A stretch of DNA of 17,200 nt from Octopus sinensis. Lineage: Eukaryota. Below are positions 230-16,933 of this stretch, piece by piece. Made by a program: the position numbers and the translations under genes. The stretch spans positions 1-17,200 of the forward strand of contig NW_021824612.1 of the NCBI RefSeq assembly GCF_006345805.1, written 5' to 3'. The notes under the pieces were generated by a model. The model saw nothing but the letters and a program-made list of their open reading frames with translations. It was not told the origin of the DNA and made no database searches. How positions within the stretch are numbered: the stretch's first letter is position 1; each line of letters opens with the position of its first letter.

Positions 230-332
230 TGTCTGAAATAAAAAAAATATGGCTAGAACTAAACAAACTGCTCGAAAATCTACTGGAGCAAAAGTTCCAA
301 GGAAACAATTGTCTGCAAAATCTGCTCGCAAG
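230..332 (+). other. Captured histone H3 5'UTR + codons 1-28 (tail through K27)
   Basis: Near-identical to the reverse complement of ~11920-12021 (H3 gene). Identity stops right after ...gctcgcaag. Upstream 1-229 does not match the H3 promoter. Confidence 0.95.
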
Positions 333-2061
333 CTGTCTGCACTAAGAAGACTATGCAGAAGTGGAGGCGTTCCCGCTTCGCACTCCCCGGAGGACAAGAC
401 GGTTCAGTGTGCCACTACGATGAACTGCCGGAGCCGTGGTTCACCGCCACGTGCTTCCGGCTATTCTAGTGGTGTTTTTAATTCTTTAGGTCAAAGCAGG
501 AGGTCGAAGCCTGGACCCTCCCAGATGGGTTCAGCACTCACTGAAGACTCTTCTCCCTCTGCTCCCCCTTTGGCTGGTGTCGGGGGAGCAGCAGCTGCAA
601 CAGGTACTAATTGTTTGGTAGCCACGACAACCGCACAGCATGCTGGTTCGCCACGTGTTTGCGGTTTGTCTAGTGGTGCCAAACCCAGCCAACTTAAGTC
701 ATTTAATGCTAACAGGGTGTCGTCTCCTGGCCCGCTCCGGTGGGTCCGGCAGGAAATAAGGTTCCCCCGAGGACGGTTGGCACACGGTGGGGAAGCCGAA
801 ACGTGTTGTGGCCGTCCAACCCCTAATGTTTTAGGTACTGGGTGTGCGTCCGCTCAGGTGGATGCACACCCAAAGAAGACCACTGGCGCGGGGGGTAGAA
901 TTACCTTGGTGCTGTGGCACGACTTGAGGTCCTCCCTACAAGTGGGAAGGCCTCGGTCGTAAAGATCTTAGGTACGTTAGACTCTATCCAGCCTTCAAAG
1001 CTGTATAGAGTCCTGAAGAGGGAGCCCACCCAATTCCTGCTTGGGTGGGGAGAAGGAGGAGGACTTCTTCAGCTTTAAAGGAGAGCTGGAGAAGTCCAGC
1101 CCGTTCGGTCCTGGCATGCATCGGCTTGTCAGGATTGAACAAAAGGTAAGGCAGGTAAGAGTCCTGCTCCTCGGGGTCCCCCGGGACTTCGAGGATAATG
1201 ACCTTTTAGGACACATACAGCGGGAGTAACCCAGTGCCTCTGCCCTTGCACGCTTCAAGCAGGGTAACCGCCCTCTTGAAGTGGTGGAGGTCATCCTGGG
1301 ATCTCCTGCGGAAGCCGAGCGCCTAGTACTTCTGGGTACTAGGATCGGCTACATTAGGATGAGAGCTGCCTGGCCCCGCCCGAAAGCCACCCAATGCTTT
1401 CGGTGTCAGGGGTTCGGGCACATCTCCACAAAGTGCCCAGATAAGGCGAAGTGCCTTATTTGCGGTGGGGAGCATGGTCGCAAGACGTGCCCCTCACCAT
1501 CCAAGGAGAGGCAGTGTGTCAACTGTGGTAAGTTGGGACACACTGCCAACTTCAGAGGTTGCCCCAAGTTCAAGGAGGCAACCCGAAAGGTAGGTGGGGA
1601 TGTAATCCCAACAGTAAGTCGCCCGCGTCGCGTCGCGCGCCCTGCGCCAAAACCTGGCAAGCAGGCGATACTGGCCAAACCTTCCAAATCCGTTTGGGTG
1701 GCGAAGACAGTGGAACTGTGAGCCATGCTACGTGTGGGTCGGTGCAGCCTTCGTCGACAAAGTTGGCAAAGCAGGTGAAAGCTTCCGAGTCCGCTTGGTT
1801 GCCTAAGCCGGCAATGCCTTCTGAGGCGGCTACGGCGGCGCCGTCCGGCACAACCTGGGGCTGAAAAGGCGTCCTCCATACGTGGAGATGCCATTGCACT
1901 CAGCCCCTGGCGAGCGTGTACCGCAGGACAGTATTAATCCTGCGGTGCAATTATGCGTTTCCCTATTAAAATTTTGTAGGGAGATGAATTGCAGTGTAGA
2001 GGAAATGCTACACTGCAACGTTGCCGAGGCCAAGAAGATCCTTGGCGAAGAACCGATATGA
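249..2061 (+). CDS. Family A ORF1 (gag-like nucleic-acid-binding protein) with N-terminal histone H3 tail + H4 peptide; split by several single-base indels
   Basis: Starts [41 protein letters not shown]. Knuckles CFRCQGFGHISTKC, CLICGGEHGRKTC, CVNCGKLGHTANFRGC (~1395-1562). Ends ...KKILGEEPI* (TGA 2059-2061), read by comparison with copy 2, whose indels fall elsewhere. Confidence 0.8.
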
Positions 2062-4660
2062 TGCTCAACATCATATCGGTGAACGCGCGTTCCTTGGAAG
2101 GAAAAAGGGACGCCGTTCAGAGGATGTTGGCCACCACGAGTGCGGACATTCTGGTGGTCAACGAAACGAAGGTAAAGGGGGGTCCGTACGTAGTCGATGG
2201 CTACAACTGTCGTCACATACCCTGGAAACAGGGGTCAATATGTGGCACAGGAACTAGCCTCTTCTACAAGCCCTACCTTGCCTTGCAGAGTCCAGGTATA
2301 TGTTCATGTAGCTTGTGTGAATTCCTCCAAGTGAGAATTCGCATAGGCGAGTTAACATTTTACCTAGGCGGGATGTACTCGAAGAACTTTACGGCGTGCT
2401 CCTGGCACGTACGGGAGTTCTTTGAAAAGCATCCGAAGGCCATGGTTGTTGGGGACCTGAATGCCAAGCATCAAGATCTTGGTTTCAGGGTAACCAACTC
2501 GCATGGTTTGGCTCTGAAGACGCTGGTTGAAGACCTCGGGCTGGAAATCCGGACTTCGAGCGAGCCAAACCACGTCGACGCGAGGGGAGGACGTGACTGG
2601 CTAGGGCTTGCTCTGGTCAGTCCCGGTCTTCTAAATTGGGTTAGTAAAACTATTTTATTGTCCGATATTGGGAGCGACCATCTGCCTCTATTGCACGAAC
2701 TCCGTGAGCCAGTTCCTCAAAGGGTCCCAGGATACTTTGACCTCCGGGTGGGTTCCTGGGCTAACCTGGAGAGTTTCATGGCCAGCAGGTTGCCCTCACT
2801 TCTGGTGGGGAATACCTGCGCCAACATACGTGAGTTGGAGGCGCTTGATAATGGAATCAATGCTGCCCTGACTGATTACATGCGAGATAATTTCAAACAG
2901 AACTCAGTGCAGGGTCAGTCACATTCCACGCTCCCTCACCGGATCTTAAATAAAATTAGGTTCAAGCGCCGGCTATCCAGACTACGGGACAAATGCGTTT
3001 ACGAGGAGAACCGTGTTTGGTTTCGTGGCTGGATTAGCCGGCTTCAGAGGAGATCCGAAGAGAAATCCGCGAACTCGAAAGTTCGCGGTGGGAGAGGGCC
3101 TGCCGAAGGGTGGACCCTCGCTTTCCGGACTTCTGGAAGCAGTTGAAGAGCCTGTCGGGGAGAAGGGGGGCTAAGTCAGTGCGCCTTAAACGCTCTGATG
3201 GAAACCTCGCTTCGGACCCGGTTGAGGTGGTTGAAATACTTTCAGCCCATCTCAATGGCATCTCGGGAACTGACGGAAGTCAGTTCGTAGAGACATCGTC
3301 CTTTGATACTGTCCAGCAGATATTGTCGTGGGACAAGCGCTGCCAGCTGGGCATATCAAGGAACGATGCAGGCGAAATTACTGAAGCGGAGATTCTGGCA
3401 GCAATCTCCCGAAGTAAGAACACCGCGGCGGGTTTGGATCGGATCCCGATGGCCATCTTTAAGAAGGCCCCGCCGCGGTTAATCACTGCACTAAAGGTTT
3501 TATTTAACGGGAGCTTGCGACTTGGGATGATTCCCTCCAGGTGGAAAGTGGCTGAGGTAATCCTTATCGGAAAGCCGGGAAGCCACATGATGTCCCCGGG
3601 GGATATAGGCCCATTTCCTTGCTCCCCGCAATATCTAAAATCCTAGAAAGAATTATGCACCAAAGGCTCCTGGAGGAGCTGATGGTTGCAGACGCCCTCC
3701 CTGAGTTCCAATGGGGCTTCAGGGAGGGCCGCTCATGCGGGGACTGCCTTCACAAGGTGTCGTCTGGTATGAAGAACGCCCTCCAGAAAAGGGAATGCGG
3801 TATTTTAGTTAGTCTCGACATTGAAAAGGCCTTTGACTCGGTGTGGCACGACGGCCTCCGGAGTTCCCTTCACGTGTGGGGTCTCCGTGTCTAAGGCGCT
3901 GGCTGTCGGGGTTTCTTGAATCTCGCAGGCAGGTCGTGCGGCATCAGGGGGTCTTTTCTAAAGTCGCAACAGTCCTTCGCGGGGTCCCTCAGGGCTCTGT
4001 GCTCAGTCCGACACTATTCAATGTGTTTATGGCCACTGCGCCTATGCCAGTCAATGCTCGTACTGAAATGGTAATCTATGCAGACGACATTATCCTCTGG
4101 GATCACTCAATGAAACCGGAGTGTGCGTGTCGTAGGCTTCAGGTTGCTGTGGATGGACTTGCAAACTGGTGTGGGAGTAGGGGTCTGAGAATGTGCGCGG
4201 ACAAGTGCAGTGTCCTTAAAGTCTGTAAAAGACGAGGGGTTACACTAATTTTGTTCCTAGGTTATTGCTGAGCGGGTCAGCAATCGCTGCAGTGATCGGA
4301 TGACTTATTTGGGCGTGCTCTTTAAGCCGTCCGGTAAGTTTGATGATCACATTGCACGTACGAAAATGCGTGCAATGCAGCGATTAGGTGCGTTGCGTGC
4401 TTTCCGCTTGAGCAGAGGTGCCTGGTTCCGCGTGTTAACGCCATGGTGTTACCCGTCTTGACCTATGGCGTCCACGCTTGGTACCTCTATGAGGACAGGG
4501 ATAAGCATGTTGACGTGCTTAAAAAATAAGAAGACGAGCCATAAGGCTAGCCTATGGCTTAGGATTCCGGACTGAGCTCTCCGACGCCCAGGAATCATCT
4601 CTCAAAGGCCTCTCTGAGGTCCTAGAGAAGATTATTTCTGGATGGCAGGTAAGGCGGTAA
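2058..4660 (+). CDS. Family A ORF2: APE endonuclease + reverse transcriptase (frameshifted in this sequence)
   Basis: MMLNIISVNARSL, VVNETK, VGDLNAKH, GSDHLP (APE). AAGLDRI, WKVAEVILIGKPG, KILER, QWGFREGRS, LDIEKAFDSVWHDGL, GVPQGSVLSPTLFN, IYADD (YADD 4077-4088), YLGV (RT). Stop TAA 4658-4660. No RNase H or C-terminal CCHC recognised. Confidence 0.9.
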
Positions 4661-4755
4661 GTCTTAACCTGTGGTTGTGTGTAGGGAGGCGTGTGTGAGA
4701 TGGAGACTGAAAAGGCAGCGATGCCGAAGGTCTACTTAGTTAGTTTTTAACTCCC

Positions 4756-4798
4756 TTAACTTATAATGTTTTTTCCCCCCCGCCTGAAACTGTTTTGT
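4756..4798 (+). promoter_or_regulatory. Diverged H3-like core promoter (TATA + leader) upstream of element B ORF1
   Basis: ttaacttataa-N15-gcctgaaactgttttgt versus the H3 upstream ttaactatataa-N14-gcctgaaacttgttctgt (reverse complement of ~12019-12062). Confidence 0.55.
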
Positions 4799-4821
4799 TA
4801 ACCAAACTGTTGGTTCAGAGA

Positions 4822-6167
4822 ATGGCACCTAAGAAAAACTCAAAAGAAAACGCAAAAGCAAACACTGAAGGACAAAAAAGAACAAAAGTTCCAAGGAAAC
4901 AATTGTCTACAATAAGAAACCTATGTCGAAGTGGGAGTGTTCTGACGGATCGGACGGCTCAACATGTTTCCATCAAAGTTGAAGAAGATTCCACCGAACA
5001 ATTTGGAGGTGCTCCGACGGTCCAGATGGTTCAAGGAGAGCCCTCCAAAGTTGAAGAATCCACCGAACCCCCGAGGTCTGACCTTAACAGCTCAGGCCTC
5101 ACATTCACTCTGAGCATTAATAACCCGGCACTTGGAAAGATCAAGAGGTTTAACCTCCTATCCAAGTCGCCAACTGCCTCCAAAGCACGGATTACATTAC
5201 AACGCTCAGGCTCCTTCACTCTTGAGTTCAGGAGCCCCGGAGATGCTGATGCATTCTCGGCTGAGCTTGCAAGATTGAACCCGTTTGGCGAAGGCGGCCA
5301 TAAACTTGCCTTAGTTACTCCGCAAAAGTCAGCACTAGTCCTAAAGGGGATTCCGCGATGGATCTCCAATCGGGACCTAGAGCTGCACCTGAAGGAAACC
5401 CTCAGTTCGGTGTTCGTTCTCGAGCGATTCACGCGAGATGGTCTCGACATCCCAGTTGCTAAGCTGACGCTTGACTCACGAGCTGAAGCTACTTCTTTGA
5501 TCCGCACCGGAATCACAGCTGGTTTCTGCCTTATCACCTGTGAATGGTTCAGGCCTCCTGTCGTCCGATGTTTCCATTGTCAGAGATTCGGACACCTGTC
5601 CCGTAACTGTCAAGAAAAAGCCCGGTGCTTATACTGCGGCAAGGACCACGACCGGAGGGAATGCCCAGGCAGCAAACAAAGTCCAGTGGAGCCCTGCGGT
5701 CGGCATTGTATCAATTGTGACCGCCCCGGCCACCTCGCTTCGTATGGTGGATGCCCGACGGCCAAAGCTGCAACAGCAGCTAAATGGGCCGCCCGCGCAG
5801 AAGCAATGCCTCGGTCTCCTAACCCAACCCGCATGGAAATGGTAAAAGCTAAGCCGGTCACGCCTATCTGGAAAGTACGGCCGCTAATAACCCCGTGTGT
5901 GGCGGACGCCCATACCCAGACGACGCAAGTCGTTGAGGTTGGTGCGCAGAGCATGCAGGCCCCTGTCGCCGAGGCTGTGAAACCGAGGCCCGTCAGCCCA
6001 ATAAGGAACGGTACTCAGCAGCCAAAACGCAGGCGAAGGTATAGACTCACAACAAGGATGCTCTGTTGGAATTTTACCAACGCTGTGTCGACTCACTGCT
6101 GAAACTGGGAGTCAAACCCAAGAAGCTAGAGGAGCTCCTATCAGAGAGGAGCTCGCCAGCAAAATGA
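4822..6167 (+). CDS. Element B ORF1 (gag-like, 3x CCHC) with H2B/H3/H4 mosaic N-terminus; one late frameshift
   Basis: MAPK..GQKR (H2B-like), KVPRKQLS (H3), TIRNLCRSGSV (H4-like). Knuckles CFHCQRFGHLSRNC, CLYCGKDHDRREC, CINCDRPGHLASYGGC. The alternative frame ends ...ERSSPAK* overlapping the ORF2 ATG. Confidence 0.8.
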
Positions 6168-6716
6168 CCACGCCACTAAAAATCATCGCTGTGAATGCCC
6201 GATCTGTCAAGAGACGGCACCTCGACTTCGTTGAGATGGTAAACAGCGGCCATCCTGACTTAATCGTCGTCAACGAGTCTAAGCTGAAAGAAGGTCAATG
6301 CTTCGAATTGCCAGGATACTGCTCCCTTGACCTGAAATGGAGAAATAACTCTACGCCTGGGACTGGGACGACTATCTACTACCTGCAAAATCTCAAGACA
6401 CGTAACCTCAAGACTATCGAACGGAACCTATGCGAATTTATCTCGCTAGAGATTAAAACCCAGCGCTTTTGGTTAAAAGTGGGCGGAATATATTGCAAAA
6501 ACCTTGCTCCATGCATCGGTCTTATCGAAGACTTCTTTGTCAGCTCAAATCATTGCCTCCTCATCGGTGATCTAAACTCCAAACACACGGCATTTGGTTG
6601 TCGCGTGACCAATCGGGACGGCCGGTTACTTGAAAGAGCGGCAGGTAGGCTAGACGTCTGTGTCCGCACCTCGAAAGCCCGGAACCACCGCTCCCCATTC
6701 GGCTGGGACAACCTTT
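6164..6716 (+). pseudogene. Element B ORF2 fragment: APE endonuclease N-terminal part
   Basis: LKIIAVNARSV, IVVNESK, IGDLNSKH, TNRDGRLL; homologous to family A APE; truncated before the SDH motif. Confidence 0.85.
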
Positions 6717-7999
6717 GCGTAGCACCCCAGTAGGGTCAGGGCTCCTACACAACAGCGGAAGCATTCCAGTTGGGAATCTCTGTTGTGTAGGTCCTGATCC
6801 GAGAGGGGACCTCTTTGTGACAAAGCTTTGTCACGGTGGGTTTTTCTCCTCTTATGAGGGACAGCCGAGCGGACCACTTCTGAGTTATGGCACTCATTAG
6901 TGGTTGTCTTCGAGTTTGTGATTGTGCTGGGGGCCGGCGACGTCTGAGTAGAGACATCGACTTTGGACGGACTTGGAGGAGCCGCTTTTGTCCAGACTGA
7001 TTTCATCGGTTCGGCTTTTACCCAGCGTACTGGGCTTTTTGTCTGTGGGCTCTTCGCAACCCTTGAGGCTGCTGTTGCTGCTTTGGCAGACGGACATCCA
7101 CCGTAGCAAGCCAAGTGCCCAGTGTTCTTGCAGTTAATGCAAGTTTTTGCAGCTGGGACACTCGGTTTCGGCTTGAAACCCGGGCAGTTTTGGTGCCTGT
7201 GTTCTTTACCGCAGAGGAGACAACGGAGTTTTTCGGAGCATCTGTAGGACGTATGTCCGAACTGATTGCAACGGAAGCATCTCGTTGCTGACGGCTTGTG
7301 CCATTCGCAGCGGATATGGCTGAAGCCCGCAGTTATTCCAAAGTCCGATTCTAGACTTTCTCTCAAGTGGAGGTTAAGATCCTCTGTCGAGATCCAATGA
7401 GGGATTCCTTTAAGGACCAAGACTGAGGCCTTCTCAGCTACTGAGGCAAGTTTATGGCCGCCTTCGCCAAACATATTCGATTGAGACAGCTCTGCTTTGA
7501 AAGCAGCAGCATCCTCGGGCGAACTGAATTTTAGAATGAAGGTGCCGGACTTCTGTAAAGTTATCCGGGCTTTCGAAGCAGTTGGAGACTTGGATAAAAG
7601 GTTAAACCTCTTGATCTTTCCAAGTGCCGAGTTTTCGATACTCAGAGAATATGTGAGGTTTGAGCTGTTAGGCTCAGTTGTCGTCTGATGGCATTGGGTC
7701 TCAATGTGTTTTTGAGTCACAGCAGGGTTCGGATGTTCGGTGGGATATTCATCTTTTATGGGTTCGCAAAAGGGCTGTGGCTTTGCCGCTGTTCGTCTTT
7801 GAACATGGGAGCAAGCTTTGATTGATGAGAGATTTTGTTTATTCTTTGACATCCCAAGTTGATTATGTACTGTCTTTAAAATTTTCATAAGATATATGGA
7901 AAAAGTTTTCCTTTTCTTTTTTTTCTTTGTAGCAACAGAAACATTTTTGTTTTTTATAGGAGCTCTTTTTTGTCCCTTTGTGCTAACTTTAGGTGCCAT
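6650..7999 (-). CDS. H2B(1-52)-ORF1 in-frame fusion protein (last ~20 codons run into antisense element B)
   Basis: Uninterrupted frame from the H2B ATG (7999): MAPKVSTK...HNQLGMSK|NKQNLSSI...CFRCNQFGHTSYRC...CLLCGKEHRHQNC...CINCKNTGHLACYGGC. About 31-aa in-frame deletion relative to B. Confidence 0.75.
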   Translation of the reverse strand: MAPKVSTKGQKRAPIKNKNVSVATKKKKKRKTFSIYLMKILKTVHNQLGMSKNKQNLSSIKACSHVQRRTAAKPQPFCEPIKDEYPTEHPNPAVTQKHIETQCHQTTTEPNSSNLTYSLSIENSALGKIKRFNLLSKSPTASKARITLQKSGTFILKFSSPEDAAAFKAELSQSNMFGEGGHKLASVAEKASVLVLKGIPHWISTEDLNLHLRESLESDFGITAGFSHIRCEWHKPSATRCFRCNQFGHTSYRCSEKLRCLLCGKEHRHQNCPGFKPKPSVPAAKTCINCKNTGHLACYGGCPSAKAATAASRVAKSPQTKSPVRWVKAEPMKSVWTKAAPPSPSKVDVSTQTSPAPSTITNSKTTTNECHNSEVVRSAVPHKRRKTHRDKALSQRGPLSDQDLHNRDSQLECFRCCVGALTLLGCYAKVVPAEWGAVVPGFRGADTDV

Positions 8000-8054
8000 T
8001 ATCCACAAAATTTGCAAGTTCTGAAGGGAAAAAATCTCATATAATAAAAAAGTA
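6713..8054 (-). mobile_element. Element C: relative of B whose ORF1 is fused behind H2B 5' flank and 52 H2B codons; 3'-truncated
   Basis: Shares ALGKIKRFNLLSKSPTASKARITLQ and three knuckles with B. 7842-8054 matches H2B 15150-15362. Confidence 0.85.
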
Positions 8055-11590: not shown

Positions 11591-12002
11591 TTATGTTTTT
11601 TCACCTCGAATTCTTCTCGATAAATGCATATCGTTTGGCATTATAGTTACTCTTTTTCCGTGAATTGCGCACAAATTACTATCTTCAAAAATTCCAACTA
11701 GGTAACTCTCTGCCGCTTCTTGGAGAGCGACAATCGCTGACGATTGAAAACGCAAATCAGTTTTGATAAACTGAGCGGTTTCTCTCACGAGTCTCTGGAA
11801 TGGAAGTTTTCGTAGTAACAAATCAGTGCTCTTTTGATATCGTCTAATTTCTCGCTTGCTGCAACAACTCCAGGTCGAAATCGATGAGGTTTCTTTACCC
11901 CTCCAAATTGTGAAACAGACTTGCGAGCAGATTTTGCAGACAAATGTTTCCTTGGAACTTTTGCTCCAGTAGATTTTCGAGCAGTTGTTTAGTTCTAGCC
12001 AT
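11591..12002 (-). CDS. H3: Histone H3, divergent (apparent indels near the 5' end)
   Basis: MARTK...[38 protein letters not shown]...[39 protein letters not shown]...RRIRGEKT*. Confidence 0.95.
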
Positions 12003-12063
12003 ATTTTTTTTATTTCAGACAGAACAAGTTTCAGGCTAGTTATTTTTGTTTTATATAGTTAAA

Positions 12064-12119
12064 CAAAATTATTCCGAATTTTTCGAGTGATGCAAAAAAG
12101 TATCATTCCGAAAATTTTT
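12064..12119 (-). promoter_or_regulatory. Histone upstream motif (AAAATTTTCGGAATGATACTTTTTTGCAT) plus degenerate second copy, ahead of the H3 TATA
   Basis: The same motif pair recurs upstream of H4 and H2B. Confidence 0.7.
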
Positions 12120-12280
12120 GGTTAAATCACTCATCATTTTTAAAATTACAAAAATTATATTTTTTAAAATAATATTTTATCAGCACCATCAAATAATTGT
12201 AACTATTGCTTAAATTGATGAATTTTTCGAGATTACAGACTAAATTACTAGTGAACTAATTAAGAAAAAACAGAGAACGA

Positions 12281-13546: not shown

Positions 13547-13920
13547 TTATTCAAATAATAATTTAAAGTTAGAAGTTGGTTTAGGAGTTTCTGCAGTTTT
13601 GCGAATCATAAATCCACCAGATGAAAAATAGCTTTCTGAGTTTATTCTTTAATTCGTCGTCATTTCCAATTGCAACGACAATGTGACGTGGTTTAATTCT
13701 TCTTTTTCCACATTTTACTGCTGTATTTCCAGCAAGTTCAAGCATTTCAGCCACAGCTATTCCAATACTGCGCACATATATACTGCGGAAGGATTCCTAC
13801 TCGCATTCGGGTTCATGACGGAGACACCGGTGAATGCGTACACTGGAAACTGTAACCCGGCCCGAACGGATTTGCTTTTAGCCTTTGACCGTACTTTCCT
13901 CCTTTTCCTCTTGAAGACAT
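13547..13920 (-). CDS. H2A: Histone H2A, strongly divergent, several indels; 3' end approximate
   Basis: MSSRGKGGK..KAKSKSVRAGLQFPV.RIHR...AVYMCAVLE..AEMLELAGNTA...KRRIKPRHIVVAIGNDDELK...GG. Confidence 0.85.
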
Positions 13921-13979
13921 TATACTCTGCTAACTATTTTTATTTACATAATAAAAAAAATGGCATCGAAATTTAGTTG

Positions 13980-14047
13980 AAAAATTTTTCGGAATGGTCC
14001 TTTTTTGCATTAGTCGAAAAAATTTGGCAATGATACTTTTTTTGCAT
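13980..14047 (+). promoter_or_regulatory. Tandem histone upstream motifs in the divergent H2A/H4 promoter
   Basis: aaaatttttcggaatggtccttttttgcat followed by aaaaatttggcaatgatactttttttgcat. Confidence 0.7.
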
Positions 14048-14084
14048 AGGTTGAAAATAGTGTTTATTTAGAGAATTTTTCCTA

Positions 14085-14393
14085 ATGTCTGGACGTGGTA
14101 AAGGTGGCAAAGGAGGAAAGAGTGGTGGCAAAACGATTTCGAAAGATATTAATGACAATATACAAGGAATTACTAAGCCAGCAATAAGAAGACTATGTCG
14201 AAGAGGGGGGTGTTCGAAGAATTTCTGGAAAAATTTACGAGGAGACACGTTCTGTCCTTAAGATTTTTATTGAGCAAACTGTTCGTGATTGTATTTCTTA
14301 TACTGAACATGCCAAAAGAAAAACTGTTATCGCAATGGACGTTGTTAATGCCTTGAAACGTCAGGTAGGACAATTTACGGATTTGGTGGATAA
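14085..14393 (+). CDS. H4: Histone H4, divergent (compensating indels in G runs)
   Basis: [11 protein letters not shown]...[38 protein letters not shown]...[30 protein letters not shown]. Confidence 0.95.
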
Positions 14394-14622
14394 ATTATAC
14401 ATAATTTTTTTAATAAAATACATTGATATTCCTTACAAATTAACCAGATAAAAATTAGCAATTTCATAAATATACTAACTAGCTACCAAACGACGGTGAA
14501 ATTACTACGATTGCTTTTTTAATTGGTAAGAAATCTTGTGAAATAACAAAAAACAAAAAGTATATTTATACAGTAAATTAGAGTTATATCGTTTGAAAAA
14601 TTTATTTTTTTCTAATAGTTTA

Positions 14623-14670
14623 TTTTTTTGCATCTGTTTATAATTATGTTTATTTAGAGAATTATTGCGA
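14623..14670 (+). repeat. Diverged duplicate of the H4 proximal promoter/5'UTR (~14037-14084)
   Basis: ttttttgcat...tgtttatttagagaatt-N7-ATG in both places. Confidence 0.7.
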
Positions 14671-14913
14671 ATGGACCCCAGAGCTCCGGCCAATCGGGCA
14701 ATGGACGATTATTTCTCCGAACATGGAGACAAATATCGGGGAAGACCTAGATCCACTCTTCCGACAGTTCTTGAAAGGGATCTCAAACTTCATGGCAAAA
14801 GTTTCAAAAACTGGGACGACCTAGAATCTTTACGGGATCTCGCCCGCAACAGAAGGGCATGGACAAGGATGGTCCAGAAGATTGTTTCGCTTGTGACACG
14901 TGTGGGATTATAA
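14665..14913 (+). mobile_element. 5'-truncated RTE-like non-LTR retrotransposon C-terminus (80-aa ORF from ATG 14671)
   Basis: LRMDPRAPA...RGRPRSTL...ERDLK...LARNRRAW resembles the RTE-clade C-terminal (GHxLRM...RGRP...DL...A.DR..W) region. Confidence 0.7.
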
Positions 14914-15097
14914 CTTTGTTTATGTTCCTACGGAATGTGTTATAATAACTAAAAACATCAAAATTGATATTAATTCGGATTTATTTAAAATTGATTTGAC
15001 GTATTAATTCATTCTTTTTCTTTTTGAGCCATTCCTTAGCTCTTTAACTGCAATCTCTTGTCGACCATCACCAATCTGATTTCAATCGTCAACTTCA

Positions 15098-15160
15098 AAA
15101 ATTTTGGAATTATACTTTTTTTGAATTACTCAACAAAATTTCGGAATGATACTTTTTTAT
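15098..15160 (+). promoter_or_regulatory. Tandem histone upstream motifs before H2B
   Basis: aaaattttggaattatactttttttg and aaaatttcggaatgatactttttt, followed by TATA-like tattata. Confidence 0.7.
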
Positions 15161-15204
15161 TATATGAGATTTTTTCCCTTCAGAACTTGCAAATTTTGTG
15201 GATA

Positions 15205-15570
15205 ATGGCACCTAAAGTTAGCACAAAGGGACAAAAAAGAGCTCCTATAAAAAGCAAAAATGTTTCTGTTGCTACAAAGAAAAAAAAGAAAAGGAAAACT
15301 TTTTCCATATATCTTATGAAAATTTTAAAGACAGTACATAATCAACTTGGGATGTCAAAGAAGGCTATGATGGCTATGGACAGTTTCACATTTGATGTTT
15401 ATGACAAAATAAAAACCGAGGCATCAAATCTAGTCTATCAGAATTCGAAGGCTACCATTACCTCACGTGAAATACAGACTGCAGTTCGTCTGATTCTTCC
15501 CGGTGAATTGGCAAAACATGCTATTACAGAGGGTGCAAAGGCAGTTACTAAGTACACGAATACAAAATAA
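15205..15570 (+). CDS. H2B: Histone H2B, intact, 121 aa
   Basis: MAPK...[40 protein letters not shown]...[35 protein letters not shown]. Confidence 0.97.
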
Positions 15571-15827: not shown

Positions 15828-16170
15828 TCGTTCTCTGTTTTTTCTTTAATTAGTTCACTAGTAATTTAGTCTGTAATCTCGAAAAATTCATCAATTTAAG
15901 CAATAGTTACAATTATTTGATGGTGCTGATAAAATATTATTTTAAAAATATTTAATTTTTTAATTTTAAAAATGATGAGTGATTTAACCAAAAAATTTTC
16001 GGAATGATACTTTTTCGAAAAAATTCGGATTATTATCAGCACTGCCGAGAACACATAAAAAACCAAAATCAATTTAGTTCCTTTGTGTCGCGCAGACTAC
16101 CCTTTGCACAAATCGTATTCAAAGCCCTTTCCGTTTCGTTTTAGCAAAGAATTTCTATTGCCATTCTCGA

Positions 16171-16933
16171 TTGAAGGCTGGATTGAGTCCAAGGTACCTA
16201 GGATCTTTACGACCGAGGCCTTCCCACTTGTAGGGGACCTCAAGTCGTGCCACAGCACCAAAGGTAATTCTACCCCCGGCGCCAGTGGTCTTCTTTGGGT
16301 GTGCATCCACCTGAGCGGACGCACACCAGTACCTAAAACATTAGGGGTTGGACGGCAGCAACACGTTTCGGCTTCCCCCCACCGTGTGCCACACCGTCCT
16401 CGGGGGGAACCTTATTTCCTGCCGGACCCACCGGAGCGGGCCCAGGAGACGACACCCTGTTAGCATTAAATGACTTAAGTTGGCTGGGTTTTGGCACCAC
16501 TAGACAAACCGCAAACACGTGGCGAACCAGCATGCTGTGCGTTGTCGTGGCTACCAAACAATTAGTACCTGTTGCAGCTGCTGCTCCCCCGACAACCAGC
16601 CATAGGGGGAGCAGAGGAAGAAGTGTCTCCAGTGAGTGCTGAACCCACCTGGAGGGTCCAGGCTTCGACCTCCTGCTTGACCTAAAGAATTAAAAACACC
16701 ACTAGAATAGCCGGAAGCACGTGGAGGTGAACCACGGCTCCGGCAGTCATCGTAGTGGCACACTGAACCGTCTTGTCCTCCGGGGAGTGCGAAGCGGGAA
16801 CGCCTCCACTTCTGCATAGTCTTCTTAGTGCAGACAGCTTGCGAGCAGATTTTGCAGACATTGTTTTCCTTGGAACTTTGCTCCAGTAGATTTTCGAGCA
16901 GTTTGTTTAGTTCTAGCCATATTTTTTTTATTT
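16171..16933 (-). mobile_element. Family A copy 3: 5' portion only, again starting with H3 5'UTR + H3 tail + H4 peptide (ATG at 16920)
   Basis: Reverse-complement match to ~236-998, with its own substitutions. Confidence 0.95.

Follow-up and report, generated by a model that had tools for sequence, protein, structure and literature searches.

Histone-derived heads on a clade of LINE-type elements that appear to insert at histone gene start sites

The stretch analysed here (the window) is the entire 17,200-nt contig C1083 of assembly G000, filed under Octopus sinensis as NW_021824612.1. It holds H2A, H2B, H3 and H4 genes mixed with APE-type non-LTR elements, and it raises the question of how the first reading frame of one of these, element B, came to open with pieces of three different histone genes. 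A preliminary description of the DNA explained the mosaic by serial template jumps among histone mRNAs. Its origin from host histones stands; as its main cause we favour DNA insertion at histone start sites. Our reading, to which we give a probability of about 0.68, is that elements A, B and C form one promoter-parasitic clade of APE-type LINEs whose heads are accreted and refreshed from the genes in which they land.

The start of the element B ORF1 is a genuine H2B-H3-H4 mosaic, with the following layout in the window:

4822..6725, plus strand: element B, comprising ORF1 and the start of ORF2, with its 3' side cut off
4794..4821, plus strand: copy-specific leader ('junk'), of which there are 7 different versions among 9 B copies
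4822..4882, plus strand: H2B-derived start of B ORF1 (MAPK...GQKR), degenerate and containing an additional A-rich insert, about 24 nt long
4883..4912, plus strand: H3a-derived piece (KVPRKQLS), 26 nt of it exact
4909..4941, plus strand: H4-derived piece (IRNLCRSGSV)
4997..5009, plus strand: remnant of a second 99-nt unit, in which a 27-nt deletion after 5003 gives QFGG

As first described, positions 4883-4908 match the A head (289-314) exactly over 26 nt, and 4909-4941 match an intact H4 copy at 28 of 33 positions; against the H4 of the window itself, with its extra G, the figure is 25 of 33 without gaps. The reported H2B matches also exist (4821-4832 equals 15204-15215 and 4870-4881 equals 15229-15240), but single 12-mers of this kind are not significant. 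In a composition-matched control based on dinucleotide shuffles of 4821-5009, the H3 and H4 matches survive, the scores of H3a, H3b, H4 and H4b being reached by 0 of 500 shuffles. H2B alone fails, with the H2B1 score reached in 149 of 500 shuffles and the longest word in 16 of 200, but the two H2B pieces chained in register from the start codon pass (9 of 2000 shuffles for H2B2, 26 of 2000 for H2B1). The mosaic might also have been copied whole from one host gene, as the preliminary description itself had considered. A search of assembly G000 with the exact 20-nt B head pattern gave nine matches on six contigs, all nine heading B elements, so no single host gene carries the mosaic and this source is ruled out. 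The A-rich insert of B was in none of six diverged or partial H2B sequences inspected; these were among 41 matches obtained from 40 of 67 candidates. Short reads also cover the B head, in a contig of depth 696 that runs across 4821-5151. B ORF1 measures 426 aa in the window copy and 457 aa in intact copies, and the Pfam matches to the B zf-CCHC (E 0.0013) and to the truncated APE both fall below the curated cut-off. Elsewhere, a minisatellite array in or beside a truncated B copy (L071:6326-8102) gives rise to long open frames.

The QFGG patch, previously taken for a further H3 match, does equal H3 at 11911-11900 over 4998-5009, but it is a 27-nt deletion scar instead of a fourth histone layer. 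Eight other full B heads consist of two 99-nt units, each opened by the H3/H4 joint, with the second QLSAIRNLCRSGG unit intact; in this second unit of other copies the H3/H4 overlap is a 4-nt microhomology, GCAA. The scar is private to the window copy (one of nine) and absent from the short-read contigs, of which the one over the site keeps the 27 nt; it may thus be an assembly error. In a post-hoc test, 44 of 12694 enumerated deletions created a new histone 12-mer, and the scar is therefore either such an error or templated by H3, as it may have been. The outermost H2B layer of B is more decayed than the exact H3a piece inside it, the reverse of simple outward layering. Internal patching from histone templates would explain this, and it is in this form that the template-jump idea of the preliminary description survives.

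The joint between H3 and H4 sequence is common to families A and B. The corresponding part of the window reads:

236..333, plus strand: H3a-derived head of element A, with a 5'UTR piece, ATG at 249 and H3 codons 1-28, in frame with ORF1
334..4781, plus strand: element A, with a CCHC-knuckle ORF1, an ORF2 with APE and RT, and a T/C tail ending at 4781
334..372, plus strand: older H3/H4 joint of A (LSALRRLCRSGGV), to which the B joint is homologous

Both ORF1 and ORF2 of this A copy are frameshifted. That A and B alike join LS to the H4 peptide and have R>S is confirmed at the nucleotide level, the joint and the D-TVQ motif that follows it aligning between the families as DNA. The remainder of their ORF1s is indeed very different: the cores are 37% identical, and the bodies have a single 24-nt blastn match in common. 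ORF2 identity is about 32-34% between A and B and 59% between B and C. A quick tree, which holds no named clade references, places A as sister to (D,(C,B)) with A-D as one clade (SH-aLRT 99). C heads have a faint trace of the joint at most, none of it recognisable, and as C is the sister of B plain inheritance is unlikely. The earlier suggestion that the leader was inherited or exchanged can thus be narrowed to exchange between families: descent of the joint from an A/B ancestor is rejected by the ORF2 divergence, the tree and the lone body match, and on comparison of the sequences transfer is far more likely.

Heads are interchangeable within family A, where H3, H2B or H4 sequence may precede the body in frame; among the A loci examined, 29 of 30 are headed by H3 sequence, in its H3a or H3b version, and the remaining one by H2B. 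Open fusions include H2B(1-24)-A with 579 aa, H4(1-53)-A with 513 aa, H2B(1-52)-C with 449 aa, known from a single locus in the window, and B with 457 aa. In one case an H4(1-50) head sits on an eroded joint, HAITRLSRGG. All head types present at several sites (H3-A, H2B-A, H4-A and B) are in frame; an out-of-frame join, MAPKVSKK followed by a stop, was found on C13428 in two copies that represent one event. An H3-headed A ORF1 that is open throughout was not found in this indel-rich assembly, the longest having 277 aa. No 5'UTR is constant among the copies, which open with start-site sequence from the host, and there is microhomology at the head junctions. That heads occur in H3a/H3b and H2B1/H2B2 versions as well as mixtures, with the junction unchanged, indicates that they are being refreshed from host genes. 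Outside these families, no convincing histone-tailed ORF1 was found among 150 ORF1 relatives, and among 32 candidates over 485 aa a single Willaertia protein, with no Pfam domain listed, has an H3 tail; both counts are weak evidence of absence. Two further ORF1 families with an identical species label (P0139, P0141) are without histone heads.

The remaining features of the window concern the sites at which these elements lie:

4782..4793, plus strand: 12 nt identical to the putative start site of an H3a gene
6726..7846, minus strand: part of the ORF1 of a family C element, joined in frame with H2B codons 1-52
7842..8054, minus strand: H2B promoter, 5'UTR and codons 1-52 heading C, with junction microhomology GTCAA(A)GAA
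8063..11527, minus strand: second A copy, truncated at both ends
11594..12130, minus strand: host H3a gene with promoter
13551..13990, minus strand: host H2A gene, frameshifted in the window contig and divergent from the H4 gene
13991..14420, plus strand: host H4 gene with promoter
15091..15570, plus strand: host H2B1 gene with promoter
16171..16933, minus strand: third A copy, 5' part, H3a-headed

At the A-B boundary of the window the A tail is followed by 12 nt from an H3a start, then by the leader and the B ATG, and from this arrangement 4782..4793 may be read as a target-duplication remnant of the B insertion that was later hit by A. More generally, the 3' ends of A, B and C are often found at the 5' ends of H2A, H2B, H3 and H4, where a TATA-like box precedes them by 21-25 nt. 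A TATA-like 7-mer starts 21-25 nt before the junction in six of seven targets scanned, with H3c missing the pattern, and the boxes of H4 and H3b are poor TATA matches. The target flanks (H2A, H2B1, H2B2, H3a, H3c, H4 and a repeat) differ and have no one conserved target sequence.

For A, 41 matched rows from 40 of 171 candidates were scored, duplicates being merged by eye. In 14 rows, or 10 of 32 distinct events, the A sequence is followed immediately by a histone 5'UTR or promoter; three of these were called by eye, and in two the sequence reached is the H3 head of a different A copy. Nine more (seven events) open with a start-site remnant of 8-18 nt before another sequence, and 18 of the 41 lie at unrelated sites. 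Random control positions gave 0 of 400 matches of at least 20 nt and 16 of 400 of at least 8 nt in a 5'UTR. The 3' ends of B, scored for all 34 candidates, comprise six in sense at histone starts, three in antisense at H2B promoters, two clear and two weak remnants, 10 at unrelated sites and 11 that share a single position in a dispersed repeat, where TATATA is present at -24/-22. Of 18 rows with C-type tails, 17 lie at a histone start or a remnant of one, in a histone-biased sample that includes duplicates. Two-sided insertions that keep the promoter upstream were found for B at H3a, C at H2A (where the duplication includes the ATG), C at H2B2 and A at H3b, and the target duplications of clean insertions measure 3-17 nt. 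At L116 successive stacked elements are each followed by an identical 12-nt H2B start. The A-tail/H2B junction recurs in a short-read contig; two runs from other studies (X4 and X7) cover only the 3' part of A and a little of B ORF2. Together, the junction pile-ups suggest that the insertion sites are transcription starts. Histone genes behind the junctions run on into intergenic spacer, and an end-to-end jump from histone mRNA is rejected as the origin of the 3' junctions because these genes reach spacer and have promoters upstream.

Several observations extend the picture of the targets. The dispersed repeat used by B (L146:1760-1852; L174-L183; 168 candidates, 40 scored) ends in a GC-rich hairpin, contains a TATA-like box and may be Helitron-like. 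An identity as snRNA or SL RNA was rejected, with no Rfam match in 501 bases and the site internal to the dispersed repeat. A (TTACC)n-tailed family has its tail at this same site in two of 10 copies examined. At L075 (C12461:52.5-56.7 kb) a full B with an 8-nt duplication lies just before an ATG opening MPAYDIYQNPES..., possibly the start of a single-copy gene, which hints at general start-site targeting. The start of a truncated H3 variant (MARTQQTAQKSTGAKFPRKQSARNSV..., 53 aa; C10250:46206, C9339:43699 and, on the minus strand, C8884:12226) is also targeted. At L132, L133 and L050, A is joined tail-to-tail with B or A2, corresponding to opposite-strand insertions at one site. A twin 36-37-nt motif upstream of histone genes (window 13970-14042, 15085-15158 and 15980-16015) is likely a shared regulatory element and a candidate tether site. 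At 14601-14960, behind an H4-like promoter, a short ORF (MDPRAPANRAM...) that resembles the C-terminal end of another LINE is a fixed part of the histone repeat unit. Over 14085-14394 the host histones are unusually divergent (RRLCRRGG in H4, and H3 likewise), with AATAAA-like signals and no canonical histone stem-loop seen by eye.

These data can be accommodated in a model in which a host factor, through TBP/TFIID-like tethering, rather than sequence would pick the insertion site. An element placed behind a histone promoter would be transcribed from that promoter and its progeny would open with the host 5' end. A 5' junction formed by microhomology within histone coding sequence, or within the histone head of a resident element, would put the histone ATG first, and the reading frame would act as a filter, in-frame fusions alone yielding ORF1 and spreading. 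Repeated rounds would have built the H3-H4 joint, passed it between A and B and then added the H2B cap in B. Homology between heads and host genes would allow other paralogues to renew a head and a promoter to be regained. Against the model stand the A and B ends at unrelated sites, and a captured histone 5' end could also serve as an internal promoter itself. As the elements insert into DNA at histone start sites, histone sequence adjoins their 5' ends. However, duplications of 3-17 nt are too short to supply 90-160 nt of coding sequence, and the head-forming step itself is thus not among the observed insertions; three routes could account for it: the target may supply the sequence through a long duplication or through annealing of the cDNA, the reverse transcriptase may jump to another RNA template, or part of the cluster may be deleted. 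Template jumps probably contribute to heads.

Whether such jumps are the main source of heads is a separate matter. Heads could be made chiefly at the RNA level, the reverse transcriptase jumping from element RNA onto histone mRNA at microhomologies with help from nascent histone RNA at the target, so that start-site targeting would be genuine and merely supply the donor. The junction microhomology is as expected, template jumps onto histone mRNA are a possible fit to both the QFGG patch, where the deletion recreates an H3 12-mer, and the fresh internal H3a piece beneath its decayed H2B layer, and template switching has been proposed for the snRNA heads of SINEU, those of Tx1 being alike (PMC4494074; here and below, PMC numbers refer to the available excerpts of these papers). 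We consider it unlikely all the same, as no copy has a histone head that is certainly RNA-derived rather than target-derived, two-sided DNA insertions with a promoter exist, and the scar, in one of nine copies and in no short-read contig, may be an assembly error. Fusion by deletion or unequal exchange in element-laden histone clusters, through microhomology end joining that would proceed independently of retrotransposition, followed by amplification of in-frame products, is less probable again. Histone clusters are heavily rearranged, H2B(1-52)-C exists at one locus only, and copies on C8744 with an equal 3' junction differ in whether an H3 promoter lies upstream, which suggests DNA recombination via the head; start-site precision, short duplications and stacking are left unexplained, so that rearrangement could cover the head-forming step only. 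Assembly artefact or chance likeness is the most improbable reading and largely refuted, for although the window contig has many indels and long inverted duplicates and the H2B 12-mers alone are not significant, nine B copies on six contigs have an identical head type, the deep short-read contig spans the head and no shuffle reached the H3 and H4 scores, which leaves QFGG alone as a feature that may be artefactual.

The organism behind these contigs is probably a dicyemid parasite of the octopus, judging from base composition and gene structure. C12461, which also bears B, holds an axonemal dynein gene with six intron-like stretches of 20-28 nt, picked by eye, and 19 of 20 sampled stretches have a GC content of 30-41%, with the element-rich L116 at 43%. 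These short introns and GC values fit those of Dicyema, with a mean intron of 38 bp and 36.7% GC (PMC6736024), hence the suggested origin; no dicyemid-labelled record was among the database matches. Over the C-terminal two thirds, the window H2B agrees with an octopus-labelled database protein at every residue, but its identity to the H2B of ordinary animals is only about 60%. The ant-labelled H2B P0006, found on a contig of 2.3 kb, is 75% identical to the divergent window H2B, far above other animals, and is probably foreign DNA in that record. Parasite contigs would then be hidden inside a host-labelled assembly.

With start-site insertion and head capture as the preferred reading, A, B and C can be set against known systems. 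They have the LINE features of a CCHC-knuckle ORF1 and an ORF2 with APE and RT (Pfam; full ORF2s in other copies), a simple 3' tail, 5' truncation and target-site duplication. With regard to a possible place in the I/Jockey group, matches outside the clade show only 22-29% identity; several of them contain RNase H, and one bears the name jockey. By the features tested, they belong to none of TRE5/Ty3, R2, SINEU/Tx1, L1 and HeT-A. In Drosophila the LTR retroelement 297 inserts in the H3 TATA box with a preference for TATA-like sequence, and we know of no promoter capture or fusion in its case.

Like TRE5/NLTR-A of dictyostelids and Ty3 of yeast, the elements keep a fixed promoter distance across unlike genes; Ty3 inserts at the start site, and in TRE5-A, an APE-type LINE, ORF1 binds TFIIIB, TBP included (PMC5911963). 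TRE5 and Ty3 use Pol III genes, whereas the targets here are histone genes and a dispersed repeat without an Rfam match; TRE5 also inserts 44-54 bp upstream, oppositely oriented, and brings UTR modules of its own (PMC5911963). Unlike both, A, B and C are mostly in sense at protein-coding histone genes, and host coding sequence joins ORF1. R2 relies on being co-transcribed with its multicopy target, needs no promoter of its own and is aided in integration by the co-transcribed target sequence (PMC4494074), a leaning on the host promoter that A, B and C may share. R2 and R1 differ in having one conserved target in a non-coding RNA gene, compared with at least seven unlike targets and protein fusions here. 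The R2 nuclease is restriction-like. SINEU and Tx1-Mar resemble the present families in recurrent host 5' pieces that form layered heads common to several families, and differ in that these are non-coding U1/U2 snRNA heads with a Mariner target (PMC4494074); A, B and C heads are histone 5'UTR plus in-frame codons from the target genes themselves. As in mammalian L1, young 3' bodies take new 5' ends and families exchange them, but L1 recruits internal promoters, is not target-specific and has no histone coding sequence (PMC3600994). Head-to-tail stacks with a promoter upstream of the transcribed copy recall HeT-A, TART and TAHRE, in which the promoter comes from the neighbouring telomeric element and not from a host gene (PMC5537684). 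In the excerpts compared, target-seeking retrotransposons use RNA genes, telomeres, microsatellites or other transposons. Our literature search, whose scope excluded most subscription journals, Repbase and supplements, found no precedent for a histone-targeting LINE, and the available excerpt of PMC8869645 does not mention histone targets.

A bolder proposal, which we regard as doubtful, is that a promoterless LINE clade homes to Pol II starts via TBP/TFIID with captured histone tails at work in ORF1p. Such tails might be putative nuclear-import signals, or bait for chromatin readers or chaperones that would steer the particle to histone loci. If true, target choice, promoter and protein N-terminus would form one self-reinforcing loop. 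Should the preferred reading of start-site insertion with head capture be borne out, it would represent a new safe-haven strategy of landing at protein-coding starts, with apparent borrowing of promoters and uptake of N-termini. It would also make a candidate tool for directing insertions to promoters, and the elements preserve a visible trace of how LINEs gain and exchange their 5' ends, a question still open for L1.
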